A stretch of 35,154 bases of DNA. It comes from a virus (lineage: Duplodnaviria > Heunggongvirae > Uroviricota > Caudoviricetes). Made by a program: the position numbers and the translations under genes. The notes beneath the pieces were generated by a model. The model searched no databases. It was not told the DNA's origin and was given only the letters and a program-made list of their open reading frames with translations. Of this stretch, positions 10,566 through 21,158 are shown in pieces. Within the stretch, counting starts at the first letter, position 1, and each line of letters starts with the position of its first letter. Location of the stretch: IMG/VR virus record IMGVR_UViG_2913152634_000005; one strand, given 5' to 3'.

Positions 10566-11329
10566 TACCTAATTTTTAACCTCAACTGATTAAATTTCGG
10601 TCAAACATCCGTTAGTGAAATACAAGTTGCTATGTAAATACACACCTGCAACTTGTATTACCAACCAAGTTTAGCTCCCGATATTACTCATTTCCATTAT
10701 TTTTCCTTGGCTAGCGCTTCGTCGAACATTTTTACGTGTTATCTTCAAGGTAGATGCTCGCAGAAATGATAGTACCACCGATTCGGCGTTGACCATAAGC
10801 CAGCAGAACAAGATCCCCTTGGCCGGTTGTATTCGTTACACCACCAAATGCATAGAATGCCTTGTTATCAGTATCTTGCTTACTCGGCTACCCACAAGAT
10901 TGTGGGGATAGCATTTGAGCAACGTAGCCTATCGTCACAGAAGCCCCTACTACAAACATCATATTACTGGACGCTATACGCGCTCCTGACATTCAGATAG
11001 ACACAGCAACGCAAATCATTTGCAGCAGACCAGAGCTTTTACTTTCCACAATAACTGGCACAAATACGAATTTCCCGACCCTCAGTAGAGAGCACAAGCG
11101 CATCTTTTCCAATATTCTGTTTCCTATGAAAAATACAGAATGTCAGCTCGCGAAATTTACTAGTATTCAGATACTTTTCTAATCGAACCTCTCAGTTTAA
11201 TCGTCATCATTACCTTATAGCTCTGCATTTCGAGTTCCTACAGTAGAGTAAGTGTTCAGTAACCCAAGTTCAGGAGAAAGGAAACGATCATGCCATTTTC
11301 AGTCCCAAATAATGCTTTCCATTTCCTTT

Positions 11330-11480
11330 CTTTTCAGGTGGTGTTTTAAATAAAAACATAAAGTTACGGCGAAGAAGAACGGAAACGCCTTAAACCGGAA
11401 AATTTCCATAAATAGAGAAAAACTGCGCGCCTTCCGCCCCGTAACGCTCCGGATCACCGGAAAGGACCCGCTCAAAAAAA
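11330..11480. other. cos-like DNA packaging site of the integrated element (cosB/cosQ conserved, cosN divergent)
   Basis: About 150 bp with roughly 85-90% identity to the prophage cos region at 27122-27270; cosN position reads GGGCGGAAGGCG versus GGGCGGCGACCT. Confidence 0.7.
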
Positions 11481-11513
11481 GCGGCCACTGACGTGATTGT
11501 TTATGTTCCATGA

Positions 11514-11545
11514 GCGACAAAACCGCCCGGAGGCGGTTTCACATA
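11514..11545 (-). terminator. rho-independent terminator after the gpI-like gene
   Basis: minus-strand CCGCC-tccg-GGCGG stem followed by TTTTG. Confidence 0.5.
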
Positions 11546-11557
11546 AAACATTCTGCA

Positions 11558-12205
11558 TCAGCGACCAATCACCACGATTTCACCACCATCACCTTCATCA
11601 GCTGTGCTGATCTCCTGAGATACCACACGTGACCCCACGCGCATTTCACCGTACAGAACAGGCAGGACATTGCCCTGGGCAACCATGTTATCCAGTGACG
11701 AGAAATACGTGTTCTGCTTACCGTTATCCGTTGTCTGTGTACGGGGAGTTCTGGCTTTCGGTGCCAGCATCTGAGCCACACCGCCAAGGATCATACTGGC
11801 CCCCGCACTATACATTCCTGTAATTGCTGCCGCTCCTAGCCAACCAGCGGGGTTCCACCACGCCACCGCAATCAGCGCCGCCCCCAGCACGGTCTGAAAC
11901 ACACCGCCACTTTTAGCGCCAGCAAGACGCGGTACGATGTGGATCACAGCACCATTCGCCAGCGGCTCATTAAGACGGGCTGATAATTCATTTTCGCCTG
12001 CATCCCGCCCGGCAATCCGTACCTGATACCAACCGTCGCTCAGTTTCTGACGAAACGACGGTAGCTGTGTGGACAGAGCTCGGATGGCTTCAGCCCCCGT
12101 TTTTACACGAAGGTCGATGCGGCGGCCGAATCGTTGCAAATCCCCGTAAAGGCAGATTCGTGCCATGCCCGATGACGCCAGAGGGAGTGTGTGCGTAGTT
12201 GCCAT
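11558..12205 (-). CDS. I: lambda gpI-like tail assembly protein
   Basis: 215 aa; MATTHTLPLASSGMARICLYGDLQRFGRRIDLRVKTG...NTYFSSLDNMVAQGNVLPVLYGEMRVGSRVVSQEISTADEGDGG closely matches lambda gpI as remembered. Confidence 0.8.
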   Translation of the reverse strand: MATTHTLPLASSGMARICLYGDLQRFGRRIDLRVKTGAEAIRALSTQLPSFRQKLSDGWYQVRIAGRDAGENELSARLNEPLANGAVIHIVPRLAGAKSGGVFQTVLGAALIAVAWWNPAGWLGAAAITGMYSAGASMILGGVAQMLAPKARTPRTQTTDNGKQNTYFSSLDNMVAQGNVLPVLYGEMRVGSRVVSQEISTADEGDGGEIVVIGR

Positions 12206-12245
12206 TTGTCGGTATACCTCTCTCGTTTGCTCTGTTGTTCAGAAA

Positions 12246-12629
12246 TTAGCAGATCAACTTATAGCGTCCCTTCCGAGCATTGCGGCGTACACGTTCAATC
12301 TTGAGGCATAGCGCCGCATCTGGCTTTTTTGGGACTGGTACACGGCAATATTCAGAAGCGCGAGGAATATTATTTATCCAGTCAATCACTTCGCTTAAAT
12401 ACCAGGCCTTACGCCCTTCCGTAACCTGCACACGCTCCGGGAACTCTCCACGGGCCTCAAGGTTTAGCAGTGTACGACGACTCAGGGTTGTAAGTTCCAT
12501 CACCTGATTCATATCAACAAGACGCTCGCTTAAACGCATTTTGTCAGCGATAGCTTTTAATTCCTCTACAGCTGGATTTGGGTACATAATTTCGGCAATT
12601 GGCTTAAGGTCATTGTAATGATTCTGCAT
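12246..12629 (-). CDS. AlpA/MerR-like winged-HTH DNA-binding protein (function uncertain; candidate packaging-specificity factor)
   Basis: 127 aa; HTH segment MELTTLSRRTLLNLEARGEFPERVQVTEGRKAWYLSEVIDWI; strong RBS aaggggga. Confidence 0.55.
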   Translation of the reverse strand: MQNHYNDLKPIAEIMYPNPAVEELKAIADKMRLSERLVDMNQVMELTTLSRRTLLNLEARGEFPERVQVTEGRKAWYLSEVIDWINNIPRASEYCRVPVPKKPDAALCLKIERVRRNARKGRYKLIC

Positions 12630-12640
12630 TGTATCCCCCT

Positions 12641-12982
12641 TTACACACGAGCCAGCGGCTGAACAGAAATACCTGAGCCAACAAACGCTGCAACCTTTAC
12701 TGACAGTTCTTTTACAGACTCAGGCCAGTTCAGAGCATCAACATTTAAGACACCTGTCTTATAGACCTGAGCCTGTGTTTTTTTCGCGGTGTCGATTTGT
12801 ACAGCGGATACATAAACCGCTTTACCTACGCTCGTACCATCCCATACCACCAGTGCACCTGTTGCATCTTCCTGCATCAGTGGCGTAAATGCAGGAATTA
12901 CCCCTTTATTAGCTGAAAATATCCCCAGCGTAGTAACCAGTGCTTCAGTGCCAGCCATGAGTTCAGTGTAATGAGTAGCCAT
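12641..12982 (-). CDS. head decoration protein, distant lambda D homologue
   Basis: 113 aa; TPLM...LVVWDGTS.GKAV...Y.KTG...WPE...AF.GSGIS pattern parallels lambda gpD; translationally coupled to the capsid gene. Confidence 0.6.
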   Translation of the reverse strand: MATHYTELMAGTEALVTTLGIFSANKGVIPAFTPLMQEDATGALVVWDGTSVGKAVYVSAVQIDTAKKTQAQVYKTGVLNVDALNWPESVKELSVKVAAFVGSGISVQPLARV

Positions 12983-12991
12983 TGCTCCCCC

Positions 12992-14038
12992 TTAGCCAAT
13001 GCGAACGGTAACAAAACGATTGATGCGGGCCGGTATTGGCTGTGGTGCTGAATGTGTCTGCACATATTCAATAGCCGGATCACCAGGCACAATATAGTTT
13101 TTCGGTGCAAGTTCGGCTTTAGTCAGCCCCATTCGGATTAGCTCCGGATCCTGAATACCGCCATAGGCGACAATCCCCTGAAGAGCCGTATTGCCAAGCA
13201 CCATCAAATCAGGATCAAGGAAATGTTTTTCAGTTCCGTCCTCGTCGGTATAACGCCCGCTGTAAACAACAATCGCAACATCGCCCATATACCCTTTAAA
13301 ACTCACCGAATCACCAAGGTCTTTAAGGGCCGTTTCCAGTTCGGAATTAGAACCACGACGGGTATCCAGAGCCTCTTTTATCGCTCTGAATGAACGGTAT
13401 TTCTTCCATACATTACCGCCCATAATGATGATATTAGTGACGCCCTCACTAAATTCTGCGTAGTTCTCAATATCATCATTTGGATCAAAAGTTTCTTTAT
13501 CCTTACCTGACCACTCAGCACCGCCAGACTGAGTGATGATATTTTGTGGTTTAATATTCCAGTCCAGCTCATAACGTTCAATACCATCGCCCTCAATGAT
13601 ATTTTTCCCCGTTGTGATTGCCTGAACGGCAAGCCATTCAATACGTGCACGAATAGCTTTAGCTTGATTTACAATCGCCTGTTTAACTTTAATATTACGC
13701 GCCCCAAAAGCATTGTATTGCTCAGGTGATACACCAGCAGGGCGCACAGCTAACTTATTTGGATCAATGCTGCTTTTCGGCTTCATATAGCCTGGACGAA
13801 TTGTTTTTGATTCGTACCCTTCGTCACGTGAAACTTTACTACCCACCATAGGAGAACAAAACGCTGCAATTGGGATATTTGGATCGTCGATTGTATCAAG
13901 AATAATATCGCGCGATTCAAACATTACCGAGCGAGTAAAAAACAAACGGGTAAACAACGCATTTAGTTGTTTTTGTACATCTACAGCATTAACCACCTGT
14001 ACAAGCTGGGTAGGCGAATATAAATCAACCATACGCAT
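12992..14038 (-). CDS. major capsid protein, lambda E-like, encoded by the integrated element
   Basis: Conserved blocks ITQSGGAEWSGKDKETFDPNDDIE, DTRRGSNSELETALKDLG, YMGDVAIVVYSG, LGNT shared with lambda gpE at roughly half identity; start at ATG 14036-38 or 14030-32. Confidence 0.82.
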   Translation of the reverse strand: MRMVDLYSPTQLVQVVNAVDVQKQLNALFTRLFFTRSVMFESRDIILDTIDDPNIPIAAFCSPMVGSKVSRDEGYESKTIRPGYMKPKSSIDPNKLAVRPAGVSPEQYNAFGARNIKVKQAIVNQAKAIRARIEWLAVQAITTGKNIIEGDGIERYELDWNIKPQNIITQSGGAEWSGKDKETFDPNDDIENYAEFSEGVTNIIIMGGNVWKKYRSFRAIKEALDTRRGSNSELETALKDLGDSVSFKGYMGDVAIVVYSGRYTDEDGTEKHFLDPDLMVLGNTALQGIVAYGGIQDPELIRMGLTKAELAPKNYIVPGDPAIEYVQTHSAPQPIPARINRFVTVRIG

Positions 14039-14249
14039 CCTCTTTGCATTCATTAAAAATAATTGTGGATATATGCTATCACCGATATTTGTCATGCGAA
14101 TACATGCAACCGAGTGCAATGTTGTATAAAGTTTTGGGATGACAACTTCAGCGCGGATAATTAGTGTTAATATCTTCACTCCCTTTGGTCGGGATTTATG
14201 TAGCATGCCGGAAAATTTATTTTTTTCCGGCCTTTTTTATTGGCAATAT

Positions 14250-14699
14250 TTAAAACGGAATATCATCTCCCCATTGCTCATTATCTCCCACTGGTGGATG
14301 GCTTCCTTGCTGATCTGCCTGTTGTTTTGCTCTGTTCAGTGCGTCAGTAGCCTGCCCCTGTTGGCCTTTTTTGCCGCCCGGTCGCACCGTTCGCGCACTG
14401 ATTACGCTGTCTGCGATAACCTGCCAGCCCTGCCGCGTTTCACCGTTCTGTCCAGTCCACTGACTCACCTGCATGTTACCCGCCACGCTCAGGAGTTCGC
14501 CTTTGTGATGCTTTGCCAGCGCGTCGGCTTGTCTGCCAAACGCCAGAACAGATAACCACATCGTCGCCTGACCGTCATCCGATTGGCTGCAGGGCAGTGA
14601 TACCGCCATACGCGCCAGCGTCATGGGGGTGCCCTTGCTGGTCTGTTTTGTCTGCGGGGCGTCCACCAGCCGCCCGTAAGCTGCTATTTGCGCCGTCAT
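14250..14699 (-). CDS. ssb: single-stranded DNA-binding protein
   Basis: 149 aa; OB-fold SSB pattern, Gly/Gln-rich linker and C-terminal acidic tail DDIPF. Confidence 0.85.
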   Translation of the reverse strand: MTAQIAAYGRLVDAPQTKQTSKGTPMTLARMAVSLPCSQSDDGQATMWLSVLAFGRQADALAKHHKGELLSVAGNMQVSQWTGQNGETRQGWQVIADSVISARTVRPGGKKGQQGQATDALNRAKQQADQQGSHPPVGDNEQWGDDIPF

Positions 14700-14953
14700 G
14701 CTGCCTGCTCTCCGGACTTAATATTGATGGTTGTCACTTCCTCCGCTTCGGCAATCTCCCGTTCGGTCAGCGTGGCAAAGTTTGCAGCCGCCGTTGTCAT
14801 GAATGCGCTTATCAGTTCGGGATGTGCTTTCGCGTATCCTTCCCCGGCGTTGCGGTCTATTGCCTTAATCGCCACCCTTAGCCAGTGTTCAGCCATATCA
14901 AGGGCGCGGTAATGTGGCTTTATATGTTTGTTCAGTTTTCCTGATGTGTGCAT
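14696..14953 (-). CDS. hypothetical protein, translationally coupled to ssb
   Basis: 85-aa ORF; stop overlaps the ssb start. Confidence 0.4.
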   Translation of the reverse strand: MHTSGKLNKHIKPHYRALDMAEHWLRVAIKAIDRNAGEGYAKAHPELISAFMTTAAANFATLTEREIAEAEEVTTINIKSGEQAA

Positions 14954-14989
14954 TTTTATTTTTACCCCCTCGTTTAAAAAGTTTTTTGT

Positions 14990-15240
14990 GCACCACCACC
15001 TTGTCTACCTTGTCTACCTGATTAGTTATCAGGCCAGTAATGGCGCGGGTTTCAGGGAGGTAGACAGCCCCAAATAGCTGTCTACCTCATCTCTACCCGT
15101 CTCCTTACCTGTCTACAAAAATGGGTAGATAAGGTAGATAACAGGTAGACAGTGAAAAATAGTTATCTACCTGCATTAATACATTGAAATAAAAGTATTT
15201 TCTTTCAGTCAGGTAGACAAGGTAGATAACCATTGCCATT
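14990..15240. repeat. iteron array, putative replication origin of the element
   Basis: At least ten copies of GGTAGACA/GGTAGATA and their complements TGTCTACC in both orientations, directly downstream of the helicase gene. Confidence 0.7.
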
Positions 15241-15242
15241 TT

Positions 15243-16334
15243 TTATAAAAACGCATCGCAATCATCAGTAGTCGTTGCGTTGGTCTGCGTGACTCCCTTA
15301 ACTTTTCGCGTAATATATTCATATCCGTAAACTTTCGCCGCTGACCTCATAGCCTTTCCGAACTCATTCACGCTCAAACATTTCCCCTTTCCTGTGTATG
15401 CCATGAAGGCCATATAGACACGGTAAAGGCTGTTTCTGGTCGTGTACTTCACGGAGTCACCACCACCGCCCATCATTAGCCCACGAGCTTCCTCCAGAAA
15501 CTCAAGCGCCGCGCAAAGCTCAACAACTGGATCCGTTTGCTGCTTTATTGCCAGAGCTTCATCACCGTCACGCTGTTCCAGTAGTAAAGCCCTTGCCTTT
15601 TCAGGGTCAGCAAAGTTAGCCAGCAAGCGGCGGATAATTACGGGGATTTCTGCCGCTATCTTTTCCGGTAATTCCTTGTCTTTTTCGTCCTCCCTTACAA
15701 TGTTGTCGAACCGGAAAATCACCCGACGGCGTGACACACCTCCGGCCCGTTCGGTAAAGATCATCGGGTCGTTATTGGTTGCCAGTACCACCGCCCTTAT
15801 TATCGTCGTGAATCGCTTCTCATATTTCGGATTGATTTCAACGGGATCGCCTCCCGTGATTTTCTTGATGCCCGTGCCTTCCCCCGTATATTTCGGCTGA
15901 TCGGCAAGGACGATAAGACGACTCCCGACAACCTGCGCGCGCCCTCCTGCATCATCGAGTGATGTCATCTCTGCGCTTACGGTGTTCTGTTTGCCTGCAA
16001 GCAGGGTGGCAATATGGGTAAATGTACTCTTACCGCTTCCCCCGTCTCCGGTGGCCTCAATGAACATCTGCCAGTCGTAGCGGTTCGCCATAATCATGTA
16101 TAACGCGGCACATATACGCATCATCTTGCGCGGGTCTTTTCCTGCAGCATGTTCAAGCCATTTATGGAAATTTGGCGCATTATCGCGGATGTTTTCCCCT
16201 GCTACTGGTGGCGTGTACTCAATACCATTGTGCGTGGTGCTCCAGTGCTCCGGCGAGTGCGGAGAAAATTCCCCCGTTTTCAGATTAAGCACACCATTAG
16301 TGAACGGTAGCAAATCACCGGACGGCTCCCCCAT
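15243..16334 (-). CDS. replicative helicase domain protein (P4-alpha/D5-type, SF3)
   Basis: 363 aa; Walker A GDGGSGKST, Walker B LIVLADQP; FTNGVLNLKTGEF motif typical of the D5_N/primase linker. Confidence 0.8.
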   Translation of the reverse strand: MGEPSGDLLPFTNGVLNLKTGEFSPHSPEHWSTTHNGIEYTPPVAGENIRDNAPNFHKWLEHAAGKDPRKMMRICAALYMIMANRYDWQMFIEATGDGGSGKSTFTHIATLLAGKQNTVSAEMTSLDDAGGRAQVVGSRLIVLADQPKYTGEGTGIKKITGGDPVEINPKYEKRFTTIIRAVVLATNNDPMIFTERAGGVSRRRVIFRFDNIVREDEKDKELPEKIAAEIPVIIRRLLANFADPEKARALLLEQRDGDEALAIKQQTDPVVELCAALEFLEEARGLMMGGGGDSVKYTTRNSLYRVYMAFMAYTGKGKCLSVNEFGKAMRSAAKVYGYEYITRKVKGVTQTNATTTDDCDAFL

Positions 16335-16993
16335 GGGGCGGCAATAACTTTTAACGCTTCCACGGCGTTATTGATTACGCGTTTGCTGAACGTGGCCCTG
16401 TGCTCTGAATAGATCGCCACCATTTCGCGGCTCAGCTCCATTGTGCTGACCGGACACCATACCCCGCCGCGCCATACGTGGACGATTTCACTTTCTGCAT
16501 GAACACAAACACCATCAAAGCGATCGGCAAGTAGTTGTGCCCGCTCACTGTCTGCCATCTGTGAAAGTTGCGCCTTTTGCTTCGTCGGAAGATTAAGCAC
16601 CAGGCTTTCCCCACGCTCGCATTCCTCTTTGAGTCGCGGCAACTGGTCGGATAAATCCACAGGGCTGGTGTCAGTAATCCCCGCGTATTCGTGTACGGTC
16701 TTCACTCCAGCCACAGCCAGTAACGTAACAATCTGCGTCATGCTGTGCTCTGTGATATGTCCTGCGCGGTAAACACGCACACACTGACGATCTTCATCAA
16801 TGATCCGGTAATCGGTGATGTTTTTCAGTTGCTCATCAGCCAGCACGACAGGCGGCACATCGTCGGCGGCAATATGTTTACCCGCCCATTCCTGCCACTC
16901 TTTCGCATGGCTCCACGCATCACTACCTGCAAAGATGATTACCTCTGTCAGTCTGTCGCGTGGCTGTTTTTTTAAGTTCGGTGCCAGTTTCAT
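16280..16993 (-). CDS. primase-like replication protein, N-terminal module (overlaps the helicase ORF by 55 nt in another frame)
   Basis: 237-aa ORF upstream of the helicase; the overlap suggests one primase-helicase gene split by a frameshift. Confidence 0.5.
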   Translation of the reverse strand: MKLAPNLKKQPRDRLTEVIIFAGSDAWSHAKEWQEWAGKHIAADDVPPVVLADEQLKNITDYRIIDEDRQCVRVYRAGHITEHSMTQIVTLLAVAGVKTVHEYAGITDTSPVDLSDQLPRLKEECERGESLVLNLPTKQKAQLSQMADSERAQLLADRFDGVCVHAESEIVHVWRGGVWCPVSTMELSREMVAIYSEHRATFSKRVINNAVEALKVIAAPWGSRPVICYRSLMVCLI

Positions 16994-17289
16994 TTTTTGC
17001 CCCTGAATGCGTTAATCATGCTTTTCATTTTCTGGATGTTTCCCCGCGCTTTTTCCCTGCTGGTGGGCTTACTGCGGGGTGCGGCATATACCAGGGAAAA
17101 ATCACGCCGGAACTGATAAACAGGCATCACGCAGTCATAGCTATACCCCTCACGGCGGTAAGTGATGCGCCGTTCTGCCACGCCTTTAATCGTTACCGTG
17201 CCGCCGTATTTATCGCGGTAAATATCGCCGTTCATAAATTCAGGCCGAGCGGGGCCGCTGGCAATAAAGCCAGAATTTTTCATTTCCAT
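16990..17289 (-). CDS. hypothetical protein
   Basis: 99-aa ORF, stop overlaps the primase start (ATGA). Confidence 0.4.
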   Translation of the reverse strand: MEMKNSGFIASGPARPEFMNGDIYRDKYGGTVTIKGVAERRITYRREGYSYDCVMPVYQFRRDFSLVYAAPRSKPTSREKARGNIQKMKSMINAFRGKK

Positions 17290-17306
17290 ATTATTTATTC
17301 TTCGAC

Positions 17307-17528
17307 TTAACTCGACTTATTTGATAGCAGGGCACTATTTATTGCGTCATTGAGTTTTTCTGCTGCTTCATCAATAAGTGACAACAGGCCATAAGCAATA
17401 TTTGCATCTTCATTGTCATTTATGCAATCAAGCCACATATTTAATATTGCTTTTGCTGAATTATTTAAAGTTAATGAACTCTCTGCACATGCTAACAATT
17501 TAAAAAAGACTTCTCGTTCTGTATTCAT
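17307..17528 (-). CDS. hypothetical protein
   Basis: 73-aa ORF in a tightly packed leftward operon. Confidence 0.35.
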   Translation of the reverse strand: MNTEREVFFKLLACAESSLTLNNSAKAILNMWLDCINDNEDANIAYGLLSLIDEAAEKLNDAINSALLSNKSS

Positions 17529-17720
17529 TTAATCCCCCACCAGCTTACTTTCTTCCTCAATCAGGAAACTAGCGACACTTCCCGAAAGGCGCGCCAGTAG
17601 GCTCGCCAGCGCGGATATATCAGCATCTGTAATTTTGTTCGGGTATACCTCAAGAAGGCGGCAAATAATCTCTGTTTGGTGCGCACGTTCAGCGGCTTCG
17701 TGTAATGTGATTTCCTGCAT
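17529..17720 (-). CDS. hypothetical protein
   Basis: 63-aa ORF abutting its neighbours. Confidence 0.35.
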   Translation of the reverse strand: MQEITLHEAAERAHQTEIICRLLEVYPNKITDADISALASLLARLSGSVASFLIEEESKLVGD

Positions 17721-17905
17721 TAATGCACCTCTTTTAATTCATACACTGCTGAAATAATGACTTGTGATAAGCCATATTCTGATGATTCGCTTCTCACCGC
17801 AGCAATAGCCGTCTGAACATTAACAGCCTTCACGTTCTGAGCGATACCAATTGTGTGGCCTCGTGGGTTAACAGCTCGGGCAAATACACGGAAGGTTTTA
17901 AGCAC
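17720..17905 (-). CDS. hypothetical protein
   Basis: 61-aa ORF abutting its neighbours. Confidence 0.35.
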   Translation of the reverse strand: MLKTFRVFARAVNPRGHTIGIAQNVKAVNVQTAIAAVRSESSEYGLSQVIISAVYELKEVH

Positions 17906-18161
17906 GGCGCACCTCCTGACGAATACGGGCAGCGAATACCATCACGCAGCCAGTTGGGGATTGCTGGCGGGCTTCCTGTTCGCTGATGGCCTCGATGGTA
18001 ATCACGCGCGGTTGTGCCGTACTCAAGGCGATAAAACGCCAGATGTATTTATTCAGGTTGTGCGAGTTCCGCCCTTGCGGGTGTGTGGTATGATTTCTCA
18101 TAGCTACCTCGATACTGTTGCTATCGTTGGTGGTTAAACGCCCTGTATGTGTTGCGAGCAC
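17898..18161 (-). CDS. hypothetical protein, first gene of the leftward operon
   Basis: 87-aa ORF starting next to the divergent promoter region. Confidence 0.35.
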   Translation of the reverse strand: MLATHTGRLTTNDSNSIEVAMRNHTTHPQGRNSHNLNKYIWRFIALSTAQPRVITIEAISEQEARQQSPTGCVMVFAARIRQEVRRA

Positions 18162-18196
18162 TGCAGGGCGTTGTTCCAGAGCAATAAAACATGATA

Positions 18197-18240
18197 AGGT
18201 GTGTACCTATCAAGAAGCATACTAAGCAATAGGTACATAC
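18197..18240. promoter_or_regulatory. inverted-repeat operator in a divergent promoter region
   Basis: TGTACCTAT (18202-18210) and ATAGGTACA (18229-18237) form a 9-bp inverted repeat immediately upstream of the RHH gene. Confidence 0.45.
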
Positions 18241-18435
18241 ATGTCAACTATCATTCAGCGCGATAAACAGCCGAAAGGTGCTGGTAAGGCACCGGCATTT
18301 CAGATCCGTATCAACCCGGAACTAAAAGAACAAATGGTTAGTGCGGCTGCAAAAGAAGGAATGAGTTTGGCTAATTGGCTTAAAGAACTAGCAAGAGCAG
18401 AACTACGCAAACAAGGTATTGAACCTAGAGGTTAA
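18241..18435 (+). CDS. ribbon-helix-helix DNA-binding protein (repressor or antitoxin-like)
   Basis: 64 aa; beta-strand FQIRINPEL followed by two helices (KEQMVSAAAKEG / MSLANWLKELARAEL), typical of CopG/Arc RHH proteins. Confidence 0.55.
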   Translation: MSTIIQRDKQPKGAGKAPAFQIRINPELKEQMVSAAAKEGMSLANWLKELARAELRKQGIEPRG

Positions 18436-18459
18436 GACTTTTAAAAGGATCTGTGAGAG

Positions 18460-19185
18460 ATGCAAAATCTAAAACGAATAAGTGAATATAATTTAACAGA
18501 CAATCCTATCCCACATTATTTCCCTCATGATAGTAGATTCCTGTCTCTACTTGGGAAATTTTCGTTCCGACTTGAAGATCTAATAGTATTTCACTCATTT
18601 GTTTATCATACATATAACATAAATCTTAAGGAGATACAAAAAATTGCAGATAACACTCCCCAATATAATCCAGACTTATTAGACGATGAAGAGCATGAAA
18701 TGGCCTTGATTTCTCAAGCCAGACATAGAGAGAGGGTTGGTTATTATGATGATCTTAATAGAAAAGCCTCATTTTTTGCCAATGACAGTGTCGTAATTAA
18801 TCTTTGGGCTATTATTGAACAGTTTAGTACCATGGCATACTCTTTGCTAGAAGCAATTATTAAAGAAATACCTGAAAATCAAGTTAAAGTTCCATATACA
18901 TGGGATAAATTAAAAAAGAAATACTTAAGTTATGGTATTGACCTCTCCCAACTTGATTCTTACGATGTCATTAACGAAACTAGGGTTTTAAACAACAAAA
19001 TCAAACACCTTTATATTGTCGATGAAAACCTTGCCTCTTTTCCTTTTTTCAAGGACAAAGAGAACAAGTCATTATTAGGAATGGAATATAGGCTTCAAGA
19101 TTATGTTATTGGAACTCATAAGTTCATCGGGCATCTTTTAGAGGATTGCTCCATAAAATTAGGAAATAAGGCAAACATGATTTAA
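18460..19185 (+). CDS. hypothetical protein, AT-rich cargo gene (candidate toxin or defence effector)
   Basis: 241-aa ORF 24 nt after the RHH gene; no family recognised; visibly AT-rich. Confidence 0.5.
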   Translation: MQNLKRISEYNLTDNPIPHYFPHDSRFLSLLGKFSFRLEDLIVFHSFVYHTYNINLKEIQKIADNTPQYNPDLLDDEEHEMALISQARHRERVGYYDDLNRKASFFANDSVVINLWAIIEQFSTMAYSLLEAIIKEIPENQVKVPYTWDKLKKKYLSYGIDLSQLDSYDVINETRVLNNKIKHLYIVDENLASFPFFKDKENKSLLGMEYRLQDYVIGTHKFIGHLLEDCSIKLGNKANMI

Positions 19186-19189
19186 ATTA

Positions 19190-19222
19190 ATTAGGTAGGT
19201 AATAAACCTACCTAATTGAAAT
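19190..19222. terminator. bidirectional terminator hairpin between convergent genes
   Basis: Perfect palindrome TTAGGTAGGT-aataaa-CCTACCTAA. Confidence 0.55.
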
Positions 19223-19225
19223 GAT

Positions 19226-19459
19226 TTACTTATTTAAGTACCATTCCCCACGAATCCACGCCTGCACCTCCGAAAGGCGATATGCTACGGCAGTGGCACC
19301 TATTTTAATTCGCTTTGGAAACTTTCCTTCTTTCTCTAACTTCCATCGAGTGCTATTAGCAAGAGTAGTTAACTCACGGCATTCTTTCTCACGGATCATT
19401 CGGTCAATGTTAGGAATGTATTCCAGACCCTTTTTATCAACAATTGCCATTTTTTTCAT
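19226..19459 (-). CDS. alpA: AlpA-family excisionase/transcriptional regulator
   Basis: 77 aa; HTH CRELTTLANSTRWKLEKEGKFPKRIKIG; immediately downstream of int. Confidence 0.7.
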   Translation of the reverse strand: MKKMAIVDKKGLEYIPNIDRMIREKECRELTTLANSTRWKLEKEGKFPKRIKIGATAVAYRLSEVQAWIRGEWYLNK

Positions 19460-19460
19460 G

Positions 19461-20573
19461 TTAACCAGCCTTTTGTTTGAGGATTGTCACTTTTGAATCA
19501 GCAGCTGCGATGCTATTGAGATATGTAGTCCAGAGTTCCAGAGCATCCAGTTTTTTAGCCATAAACTTACTCCGGTTGTAAACACCTGCCACGCCAGGTA
19601 GCGCATGGCCTAACAGTTGTTCTACTACATAAAATTCAACACCGAGATCACTTAGATGAGTAGATAGCGTTCTTCTAAGGTCGTGTAGTGACCATTGTTT
19701 TTCATGGCCCAAACGTTTACCGATTTTCCCCCCAATCTTGCTTACGCTTTCTCTAATTCGCAGACTTCCCAGCACATAACCAGTATGTTTTGTCTCTTCG
19801 TGAACATCCGTTACCCACTGTCGTAGAATTTCAGGTACTGGTCTGACGATTTCAACACCAGTTTTTGAGTGATCTTTTGGTACAGTCCAAACCCAACTTT
19901 CGAGATCCCATTCGCTCCATTCTGATAATCGGGCTTCACTCATTCGACATCCAAATACTGTACAAAGCACAAACATTTTTCGCGTGTATTCAGACATTAG
20001 TTTTAAATCAGGCTCGACAAAAATTGCCTTCCAGAGCTGGCCGAGTTCGGCTTCATCCAGAACCCGATCCCGCTTACCTGCAATCTGCCCCACATCACTC
20101 ATGCGCAAATCCTTTAAAGCATCACACGTCGCGTACTGGCGTACCCGACAAAAACGAAGAGCTAATTTAGTGTCAGAAAAAACATACGCCGCCATAACTG
20201 GTGCATTACTTTTAATTCGGTCAAAACAGTCCAGCCATTCATATAGGTGAGTGTCATTTACGGGCAAATGACCGATATAGGGAAAGATATGCTTTCGAAA
20301 TCTGCCAAGCGTTACAGCATGAGTTTTACGACGCACCTTACAGTAATTTTCATACCAGTAATTTAGTGCATCCTCCACTGTGACCGGCTTTAAGCGTTCT
20401 TCAGCCTGAATCTTAATCTGGATACGCGGATCACGTTTGTCAGCCAACCAAGCACGGCACTCGTCGCGCTTTTCCCTTGCCTGTTTGAGTGACATATCAG
20501 GATATTTACCCAACGTTAGCCAGACCGGAGCAGCCCGGCCACCTGCTAACCTGTAGAAGAAAACAAAGCTCAC
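19461..20573 (-). CDS. int: tyrosine integrase (P4-type), catalytic portion; N-terminal arm-binding segment lies in another frame at 20573-20695
   Basis: 370 aa with R...HDLRRT...LLGH...Y tyrosine-recombinase motifs; ORF 20570-20827 encodes the expected N-terminus MAGENKLSDKALKGYLGKPREKQITIADGKGLSIRVSTKGL and stops 1 nt out of frame. Confidence 0.8.
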   Translation of the reverse strand: MSFVFFYRLAGGRAAPVWLTLGKYPDMSLKQAREKRDECRAWLADKRDPRIQIKIQAEERLKPVTVEDALNYWYENYCKVRRKTHAVTLGRFRKHIFPYIGHLPVNDTHLYEWLDCFDRIKSNAPVMAAYVFSDTKLALRFCRVRQYATCDALKDLRMSDVGQIAGKRDRVLDEAELGQLWKAIFVEPDLKLMSEYTRKMFVLCTVFGCRMSEARLSEWSEWDLESWVWTVPKDHSKTGVEIVRPVPEILRQWVTDVHEETKHTGYVLGSLRIRESVSKIGGKIGKRLGHEKQWSLHDLRRTLSTHLSDLGVEFYVVEQLLGHALPGVAGVYNRSKFMAKKLDALELWTTYLNSIAAADSKVTILKQKAG

Positions 20574-20827
20574 AGCCCCTTGGTACTCACACGAATAGAA
20601 AGCCCCTTTCCATCAGCAATGGTGATCTGCTTTTCTCTGGGTTTCCCCAGATATCCTTTAAGTGCTTTGTCGCTCAGTTTGTTCTCGCCAGCCATTTTTA
20701 GCCCCAAAAAGCAATACAAGCTGCAATACAGAGATGATTGCAACACACAGATAACGAGGAAAATCCAGTGAAAGCGCCAGATAAACTTATTCTTTATTAT
20801 CAAAAGATTAAGTGTAAAAACCAGCAA

Positions 20828-21103
20828 CTACACGAAAGCCTCAGAAAGCCATGCTAAGTGCTTCGGCTTGACATATCCCGGCGTAAATTCAGAGGTGGAG
20901 CCGCCACGGGAGCGGATAACCTCACCGGAAACAATCGGCGAAACGTACAGCGCCATGTTTACCAGCCCCGGAATTTGTGAGAGATAGACTTTCTCCGTGG
21001 TGAAGGGATAGCTCTCACGGAAAAAGAGACGCAGAAACAGCGGATCAAACTTAAATTTCTGCTCATTTGCCGCCAGCAGCTGGGCGGTTGTGTACATCGA
21101 CAT
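20828..21103 (-). pseudogene. E: major capsid protein E, 5' fragment (codons 1-84 plus 9 element-derived codons)
   Basis: MSMYTTAQLLAANEQKFKFDPLFLRLFFRESYPFTTEKVYLSQIPGLVNMALYVSPIVSGEVIRSRGGSTSEFTPGYVKPKH matches lambda gpE 1-84, then LAWLSEAFV-stop. Confidence 0.88.
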
Positions 21104-21158
21104 AAAAAAATCCCGTAAAAAAAGCCGCAAAGGCGGCCTTTAGTGATGAAGGGTCAGG

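Follow-up and report, generated by a model that had tools for sequence, protein, structure and literature searches.

A HEPN-like defence candidate in a swappable cargo slot behind the ribbon-helix-helix gene of a capsid-inserted phage satellite

Why would a phage satellite carry, beside its integrase gene, a small DNA-binding protein followed closely by an AT-rich gene that resembles nothing in the usual libraries? The question is raised by positions 18162-19225 of the virus record IMGVR_UViG_2913152634_000005, a 35,154-nt stretch of caudoviricete DNA that we refer to as the window, in which a 64-amino-acid (aa) ribbon-helix-helix (RHH) protein is encoded just ahead of a 241-aa protein. A first-pass annotation, made from the sequence alone, had taken the two genes for a candidate toxin-antitoxin or defence pair. 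We suggest that the RHH protein is a regulator belonging to the satellite itself, and that the 241-aa protein is a co-transcribed cargo effector, a solo HEPN-like protein that would act by abortive infection. With nuclease activity and defence as inferred parts of it, this reading as a whole has in our estimation about an even chance of being correct. The 241-aa gene, taken by itself, is a well-supported defence candidate of moderate interest.

The satellite is 11.4 kb long (approximately 9447-20856) and sits inside the major capsid gene E of a lambdoid prophage, which it splits into an N-terminal piece at 20828-21130 and a C-terminal piece at 8664-9440. It is co-oriented with the Phage_cap_E gene of the prophage, and its gene content includes int, alpA, a D5-type primase gene, an SSB gene, and its own Phage_cap_E capsid and HDPD decoration genes. 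The same insertion in capE is present in at least five other E. coli strains. The element is a helper-embedded phage-inducible chromosomal island (HE-PICI) of the capE site group, type ‘11capE’ of Tommasini, Mageeney and Williams (2023; PMC10111431); as an element it does not differ from that type, although the copy in the window has frameshifted int and primase genes. In describing the capE-site HE-PICIs, that study, which maps 491-519 HE-PICIs, drew attention to a dynamic region between alpA and the replication genes, the ‘Bro zone’, and it makes no mention of the RHH gene, the 241-aa gene or defence cargo there. Over a 1.2-kb region that contains both genes, the window is 100% identical to E. 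coli RM14723.

The 241-aa gene (18460-19185, + strand) begins 24 nt after the RHH stop codon, and comparison with sister satellites places it in a slot whose content is exchanged as a unit. Homology to sister E. coli HE-PICIs is lost at 18431-18444 and found again, with 97% identity, from 19239-19241 onward; these break-points define a cassette bounded by the stop codons of the RHH gene and alpA (approximately 18445-19238), with flanks that retain 77-97% identity. The right flank is alpA (19226-19459, - strand; 77 aa; Pfam Phage_AlpA, E 6.5e-15). In SCU-316 the slot holds a 360-aa homologue (L008:5629-6711; E 1e-124) of PD-T7-1, an experimentally validated defence gene (PMC9519451), and in 07-4299 it holds a 227-aa putAbiC protein (L037:3728-4411; E 2.8e-16). 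Occupants without a defence annotation are a 118-aa SWIM zinc-finger protein in E1, MLI106K3 and PEB20 (L009:5364-5720) and unknown proteins of 147 aa (L034:3868-4311) and 158 aa (L039:3759-4235) in IMT16316, UK_Dog and cq9; these three are, by their position, further defence candidates. E2348/69 has no gene in the slot, and alpA comes directly after the RHH gene. The first-pass annotation had likened this place beside int and alpA to the sites where satellites keep variable cargo, and the PD-T7-1 and putAbiC genes of the sister satellites bear that out.

Each alternative cassette also carries its own hairpin, different in sequence and folding at -16 to -22 kcal/mol. In the window, a perfect 14-bp hairpin with a 5-nt loop (19187-19219; arms 19187-19200 and 19206-19219) lies between the convergent 241-aa and alpA genes, with a folding energy of -18.1 kcal/mol on the + strand (z -6.8) and -16.2 kcal/mol on the - strand (z about -6 to -7 overall). 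It had been described as a perfect bidirectional terminator. The hairpin is indeed perfect, and its role as a terminator is an interpretation: neither strand has a U-tract and a terminator scan gave no call. We treat it as a probable transcription stop. Judged from sequence, the RHH-to-alpA slot is a mobile-element defence hotspot: its flanks are conserved, its content is exchanged, and established defence genes are found among its occupants. The P2 and P4 hotspots (Rousset et al. 2022, PMC9122126) and the accessory regions of PICIs (PMC10085698) likewise combine conserved flanks with variable content of lower GC and validated defence genes, whereas a slot directly behind the RHH gene of capE-type HE-PICIs has no description in the HE-PICI paper (PMC10111431).

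The occupant of this slot in the window belongs to a broad family of its own. The 241-aa gene has a GC content of 32.2%, against 45.3% for the satellite, and a dN/dS of 0.11, which indicates purifying selection. Pfam, PADLOC, PHROGs and NCBIfam return no significant match for the protein, in keeping with its first description as an AT-rich open reading frame (ORF) of no recognisable family, and 91 family members searched against Pfam returned no recurrent family. Among 1.84 billion proteins we find 255 cluster representatives (50% identity) at E<=1e-3, to which a second search with the 91-sequence alignment added almost nothing. Few E. coli strains have the gene (4 of 5426 complete genomes). 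Satellite copies lie behind an RHH gene in E. coli, Raoultella and Yersinia, with identity falling to 47%, and a Citrobacter homologue is known from protein homology only. The Yersinia satellites with the family (L005, Yersinia kristensenii; L006, Logan assembly) are inserted in a prophage gene that fuses a ClpP protease to the capsid protein; the truncated protease adjoins int, and the remainder of the fusion gene lies at the opposite end of the satellite.

Outside satellites, a genome scan run with a smaller alignment (A4) found members in Vibrio, Pseudomonas, Acinetobacter, Psychrobacter, a cyanobacterium (Aphanizomenon), a planctomycete and others (16 species representatives). None of these 16 loci has an RHH neighbour or a conserved partner. 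Their neighbours include AbiGi, a DrmC-like phospholipase D (PLD) nuclease, an HNH protein and integrases, along with putative HipBA-like, HigBA-like and IS200/605 modules that were labelled by eye from ORF translations and not by a library scan. The copy in a P2-like phage stands alone, without an RHH gene, between the tail-fibre-assembly and tail-sheath genes, at what we take to be the Z/fun site of P2, and in viral contigs the family likewise occurs with no RHH gene beside it. A tblastn search of the 241-aa protein against 50,697 phage records, phi80 among them, gave no match. Similarity to a phage structural or replication protein, which had been named in advance as counting against a defence role, was looked for and not found, and the protein has no Bro-N domain that would assign it to the Bro-N network. 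A stand-alone gene without a conserved partner, carried on prophages and satellites, is the arrangement seen in solo HEPN defence proteins.

Whether the protein is itself a HEPN protein is the point on which its proposed activity turns. HEPN domains are four-helix bundles, frequently with an insert between helices 2 and 3 and with an acidic residue in helix 2 (typically Ex3[K/R]), and their defining motif, which closes helix 3, is Rx4-6H, the arginine being immediately followed by a polar residue (PMC3710099). The remote-homology search and structure prediction that the first-pass annotation had recommended gave a divided answer. The AlphaFold2 model is confident and all-helical (pLDDT 92, pTM 0.84) and has the four-helix up-down core of HEPN with an insert between helices 2 and 3, but no sequence-library search identified the family as HEPN. 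The long second helix carries E120 (codon 18817-18819, + strand), an acidic residue conserved in 99% of members within the consensus E-Q-F-x-x-R, that is, Ex4R. At the end of the helix formed by residues 168-183 lies the motif E173-T-R175-V-L-N178-N179-K-I-K182-H183 (codons 18976-19008, + strand). This stretch, ETRVLNNKIKH, had already been pointed out as weakly HEPN-like and only suggestive; far from being weak, it is the most conserved part of the family, with E173, R175, N178, N179, K182 and H183 kept in 93-99% of 119 diverse members. Among 91 sequences no change is seen at N179, K182 or H183; R175 and E120 are conserved in 97-99% of members, and all 16 genome-borne relatives retain R..NN..KH. 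N179 stands at the position where the HEPN motif calls for a polar residue. Taken together, the invariant E/R/N/N/K/H set has the look of an active site, not of a surface for binding.

Among named HEPN families, the DUF4145/Swt1-like proteins (Pfam clan CL0291; PMC3710099) share with the 241-aa family the order of elements, namely W..(I/V)E in an early helix, followed by E-x-R-x-L-x-N-x3-H-L where helix 3 ends. They differ in having the canonical catalytic arginine where our family has an asparagine, and profile support for the likeness is borderline, at approximately the top 3-5% of shuffled controls. A gapless 11-residue match sets MRHLRNSAAHL, from a DUF4145/Swt1-type HEPN protein of the Raoultella sister satellite, against TRVLNNKIKHL. 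When the family is aligned by hhalign to a profile of 33 DUF4145 sequences, the register pairs E120 with E104, R175 with R148, N178 with R151, N179 with N152 and H183 with H156. This alignment is statistically weak (E 0.066, probability 0.8%), and its score of 17.6 compares with a mean of 12.2, a 95th percentile of 16.0 and a maximum of 23.4 among 150 column-shuffled controls. The Raoultella/Klebsiella sister satellite encodes, itself as cargo, a 192-aa DUF4145/Swt1-type HEPN protein downstream of its primase gene (L002:4003-4581, - strand), which is another accessory position, and homologues of this protein are widespread in Enterobacterales.

Several results weigh against a HEPN nuclease and against the proposal built on it. 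The spacing Rx4-6H is absent: the canonical arginine position is occupied by N178 (95%), and the conserved R175 gives R-x7-H, so the protein could be non-catalytic. All hhalign probabilities lie below 3%, none of the 91 members matches any HEPN Pfam model, and a PDB sequence search with two profiles (A1 and A2) brought up no HEPN chain at E<=10, only chance matches. Foldseek found nothing significant in the PDB and, over the PDB and BFVD, nothing below E 0.06 except one uncharacterised myovirus protein. Some members lie in ordinary-looking chromosome, at lgt-thyA in Vibrio and next to smc in the cyanobacterium. On the regulatory side, the frameshifts in integrase and primase make the present-day regulation of the window's satellite uncertain. 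Considering both the model and these points, we think that the 241-aa protein is probably a true HEPN derivative; we call it HEPN-like and place it in no named HEPN family.

The strongest competing explanation accepts the fold and drops the chemistry. The protein could be HEPN-like without being a nuclease, serving in nucleotide or ligand binding or as a scaffold, perhaps in a role unrelated to phage defence. The replacement of the canonical arginine by N178 and the spacing outside Rx4-6H would suit such a protein, several HEPN families have lost catalysis (PMC3710099), and the core-like neighbourhoods of some members and the weak sequence-level support for HEPN point the same way. Yet H183, K182 and N179 are invariant, and R175 and E120 nearly so, across very distant taxa, and a displaced basic residue that substitutes for the arginine is documented in other HEPN families (PMC3710099). 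The gene is moreover tied to a satellite hotspot and to a phage moron position. We regard a non-catalytic protein as unlikely, its weight coming from the missing canonical arginine, and prefer a HEPN-like effector with a putative active site.

Known solo HEPN effectors suggest how such a protein might work. HepS, the ‘HEPN solo’ of Gifsy-1 (PMC13043305), is a 218-aa, constitutively produced abortive-infection anticodon nuclease that is an inactive tetramer at rest and becomes active once it is bound by the tail-tip protein J. The Tai systems of phi80 and PICIs are single-gene systems expressed in the lysogen (PMC11364771), and phages escape from both HepS and Tai through mutations affecting the C-terminal part of J. 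HepS is the nearest functional analogue of the 241-aa protein, and the two are not alike in detail: the motif of HepS is R-N-x3-H at residues 100-105 of 218, that of the 241-aa protein is R-x2-N-N-x2-K-H at residues 175-183, and the first two helices are much longer in the 241-aa protein. No sequence homology of the 241-aa protein to HepS or TaiEcA was detected in the PDB sequence search at E<=10 or by tblastn in the phage records. The Tai systems are probably related to HepS. The Tai paper (PMC11364771) makes no mention of HEPN; however, a 204-aa gene of phi80 (L040:6366-6980, - strand), which by its place in the gene order appears to be taiEcA (orf63), encodes a canonical HEPN motif, RNDLAH, together with a CERMVEAW helix, features suggesting that the Tai proteins, like HepS, are of HEPN type. 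When aligned to the phi80 protein by hhalign, the 241-aa family gives E 0.021 and a probability of 2% over 38 columns just upstream of the motif; with the Abi_C/AbiJ-like protein of the window, taken as a single sequence, it gives no alignment.

The sequence of events that we infer, from DNA binding and a rightward promoter to co-transcription, a nuclease activity, its trigger and a defence phenotype, would run as follows. In the resting satellite the RHH protein would bind both arms of an inverted repeat, 30 bp apart, and block the promoter of the early operon, which begins with an icd-like gene and includes the primase gene, thereby keeping the satellite quiescent; the arms overlap the predicted start of its own transcript, and the RHH gene would accordingly regulate itself. 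Whatever cassette lies behind the RHH gene would be transcribed with it in this resting state, and transcription would be stopped by the cassette's own hairpin. The 241-aa protein would be a single enlarged HEPN-like four-helix domain, with its glutamate in helix 2 and R-x2-N-N-x2-K-H where helix 3 ends, and it could act alone in the manner of HepS, as a constitutive and inactive oligomer. By the same analogy, a cue from an infecting phage would activate it, a tRNA or mRNA would be cut, and the infection would abort. The idea of a trigger-activated RNase comes from analogy with HepS, which is constitutive, and with Tai, which is expressed in the lysogen. It is possible, though doubtful, that the whole family consists of widespread solo HEPN-derived abortive-infection nucleases in which the catalytic arginine has moved by one helical turn, and that the satellite copies are expressed from a repressor transcript so that the satellite-prophage composite, silent itself, defends the host against competing phages.

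A further alternative makes the 241-aa protein a factor in the dealings between satellite and helper, either a sensor or anti-repressor that couples helper induction to the RHH switch or an agent of interference with the helper, and not a general defence protein. Such a role would suit the location of the gene in the regulatory dynamic or ‘Bro’ zone between alpA and the early operon (PMC10111431), its retention behind the RHH gene in the satellites of several genera, and a slot whose changing content could track helper specificity. It fits poorly with the presence of the same invariant motif outside satellites and in distant phyla, from Vibrio to a cyanobacterium and a planctomycete, with bona fide defence genes in the same slot, and with an invariant residue set that resembles an active site and not a binding surface. 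We consider a helper-directed role improbable, and continue with the reading of the gene as defence cargo.

The RHH gene (18241-18435, + strand) belongs to the satellite rather than to its cargo. The protein reaches 23.4 bits with Pfam HicB (PF05534; E 5.5e-5; cut-off 21), a match confined to the RHH part of that model (residues 20-48), and it also matches PHROG 228, ‘Arc-like repressor’ (E 4.6e-7). Its best match in the PDB is P22 Arc (E 0.079), residues 12-59 aligning to full-length Arc (53 aa), and in size and in the fold that these matches imply it resembles the Arc/Mnt/CopG-type repressors, which are RHH proteins of approximately 45-60 aa. The gene has a dN/dS of 0.06-0.26 and is found at a matching distance from the icd-like gene in 10 other satellites; it encodes 64 aa (195 nt) in E. 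coli satellites, and 63 and 61 aa in three non-E. coli satellites. Downstream of it, sister satellites show at least six other arrangements. The RHH protein is thus most likely a backbone protein and not a partner of the cargo. Since the arms of the inverted repeat covary across lineages and bracket a conserved leftward promoter, we read it as most likely a switch (or maintenance) repressor rather than a cognate antitoxin.

A type II toxin-antitoxin module, in which a HicB/RelB-like antitoxin would neutralise a HEPN-like toxin and repress the shared operon through the palindrome, could draw on the adjacency and shared orientation of the genes, the operator-like repeat at the promoter, the RefSeq name ‘HicB family antitoxin’ with weak matches to RelB and TacA antitoxin models, and the existence of HEPN toxins in toxin-antitoxin systems (e.g., 5yep, 7ae2), but it is very improbable because the two genes occur independently: the same RHH gene precedes unrelated genes or no gene in sister satellites, the family does without an RHH neighbour or conserved partner in all 16 genomes and stands alone in the P2-like phage, the 64-aa protein aligns end to end with Arc and so has no toxin-binding extension, and Pfam finds no HicA domain. 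The dedicated pairing favoured by the first-pass annotation is thus given up. MNT-HEPN toxin-antitoxin modules (SO_3166/SO_3165, 5yep) are distinct as well, as the 241-aa protein has no MNT or conserved partner, is nearly twice as long, and has a non-canonical motif.

The inverted repeat reported upstream of the RHH gene is present as described and proves to covary. Its perfect 9-bp core, TGTACCTAT (18202-18210) and ATAGGTACA (18229-18237), extends to 12-nt arms, GTGTGTACCTAT on the left (18199-18210) and ATAGGTACATAC on the right (18229-18240), which are 92% complementary, separated by 18 nt, and 30 bp apart from centre to centre. Dinucleotide shuffling of the 139-nt intergenic region (5000 shuffles) gives any perfect 9-bp inverted repeat, with a loop of up to 40 nt, in only 1.9% of cases. 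The right arm runs up to the RHH ATG and adjoins the -35 element of the leftward promoter. An alignment of the switch regions of 11 satellites (A5) divides the putative operators into four classes: GTGTGTACCTAT / ATAGGTACAYAC, GTGTACACCTAT / ATAGGTGTACAC, two copies of ACGTACGTAC, and two copies of TGGTATATACC. Relative to the repeat in the window, GTACACCTAT and ACGTACGTAC are heterologous operators. Six of the 12 pairs are changed on both sides and 93% of cells are paired, whereas in a slid control, computed for the whole three-helix structure with the 3' partner moved by 1-3 columns, 27-46% are. The mismatches in the arms are a mixture of G.T-type and A.C-type without strand bias, for which reason the repeat has the look of a site in DNA, not of a stem in RNA. 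We reject an RNA stem on account of this lack of bias, which sets the arms apart from the stem-loops upstream, and of predicted transcription starts that lie inside an arm or in the stretch between the two. Different operators are seen even where the beta-strand (FQIRI) is almost unchanged between satellites, and specificity may thus be set by the N-terminal arm or by another protein.

The promoters fit a switch of this kind. A strong predicted leftward sigma-70-like promoter for the icd-like/primase early operon (18219-18247, - strand) matches the consensus at 10 of 12 positions, with a -35 of TTGACA at 18247-18242, a 17-nt spacer and a -10 of TAGTAT at 18224-18219, and it recurs at the same position in the diverged relatives L009 and L007. 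The conserved beginning of the RHH gene, ATGTCAAC, shares bases with its -35, and the arms bracket the promoter. For rightward transcription of the RHH gene and cargo, we propose a putative extended -10 (TGaTAAGGT; 18192-18200, + strand), a conclusion from conservation, TG(A/T)TAA(G/C/T)GT being found in 10 of the 11 aligned satellites; the promoter scan did not call it. The natural reading, a prediction, is that the RHH protein represses the icd-like/primase operon and autoregulates.

A candidate cis-antisense small RNA lies to the left (18101-18180, + strand), facing the icd-like gene's leader, Shine-Dalgarno sequence and ATG. It consists of two covarying stem-loops (18102-18136 and 18138-18172), whose two helices are 98% paired, with nine pairs changed on both sides. 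The + strand has 41 G.U cells and no A.C cells, and folds at -27.6 kcal/mol against -19.4 for the - strand; in relatives a T-run lies 3' of the stem-loops. These features suggest a cis-antisense RNA of approximately 75-80 nt, possibly an immunity RNA. It has no Rfam match, and an Rfam search of the whole satellite at E<=1 found none, and so no C4, isrK or CI-type immunity RNA. The sequence TGgTATGAT at 18086-18094 could be a promoter for the antisense RNA, but it overlaps conserved His-Thr codons.

In P22, the immI region combines the RHH repressors Arc and Mnt with the sar antisense RNA, and the switches of P2 and 186 are built from face-to-face promoters. The locus described here resembles them in its Arc-like RHH protein with a putative operator over closely spaced, opposed predicted promoters, and possibly also resembles immI in a short antisense RNA over the ribosome-binding site of the first early gene. 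It differs in belonging to a satellite and not to a phage, and in having putative operator arms 30 bp apart instead of a single 21-bp site. EcCIMP1 has a repressor of another kind, a PerC/ANR-like protein. A literature search for PICIs with ribbon-helix-helix proteins returned nothing relevant, and one for the RefSeq accessions returned nothing.

The type of element, satellite hotspots and solo HEPN effectors are already known, and we claim no new principle. What is new is a protein family that lacks annotation and whose motif is a variant, the precise place of a hotspot behind the RHH gene in capE-type HE-PICIs, and a first outline of the HE-PICI switch region, comprising an Arc-like putative repressor, a covarying putative operator, opposed predicted promoters and a possible antisense RNA, which lies outside the coverage of PMC10111431. 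If the proposal is true, a broadly distributed single-gene defence family has been missed by Pfam, PADLOC, PHROGs and NCBIfam, and nature provides in it a HEPN active site whose arginine has changed position. The hotspot, delimited by the stop codons of the RHH gene and alpA, would then be a precise and easily mined feature of HE-PICIs.

The state of the satellite in the window also bears on its biology. Its tyrosine integrase gene (19461-20695, - strand; Pfam Phage_integrase and Arm-DNA-bind_3) is annotated as ‘frameshifted’ in RefSeq, and its primase gene (15243-16993) is frameshifted into ORFs of 237 aa and 363 aa, while the RHH, 241-aa and AbiJ-like genes are intact despite this damage. 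The satellite in the window is probably immobile, and its cargo may be domesticated. The AbiJ-like gene lies at the other end of the satellite (9804-10565, + strand), where a low-GC (37%) cargo gene encodes a 253-aa protein with matches to AbiJ in PADLOC (E 2.4e-22) and to Abi_C in Pfam (E 1.7e-23); with it, putative HEPN-type effectors are found at both ends of the satellite. In the late zone (11558-12629, - strand), a homologue of the lambda tail-assembly protein I (215 aa) and a second AlpA-domain protein (127 aa) adjoin the satellite's capsid and decoration genes. The host prophage is damaged too: by RefSeq annotation of the identical region, an IS3-family transposase gene abuts a truncated tail-tube gene at approximately 6100-6914.

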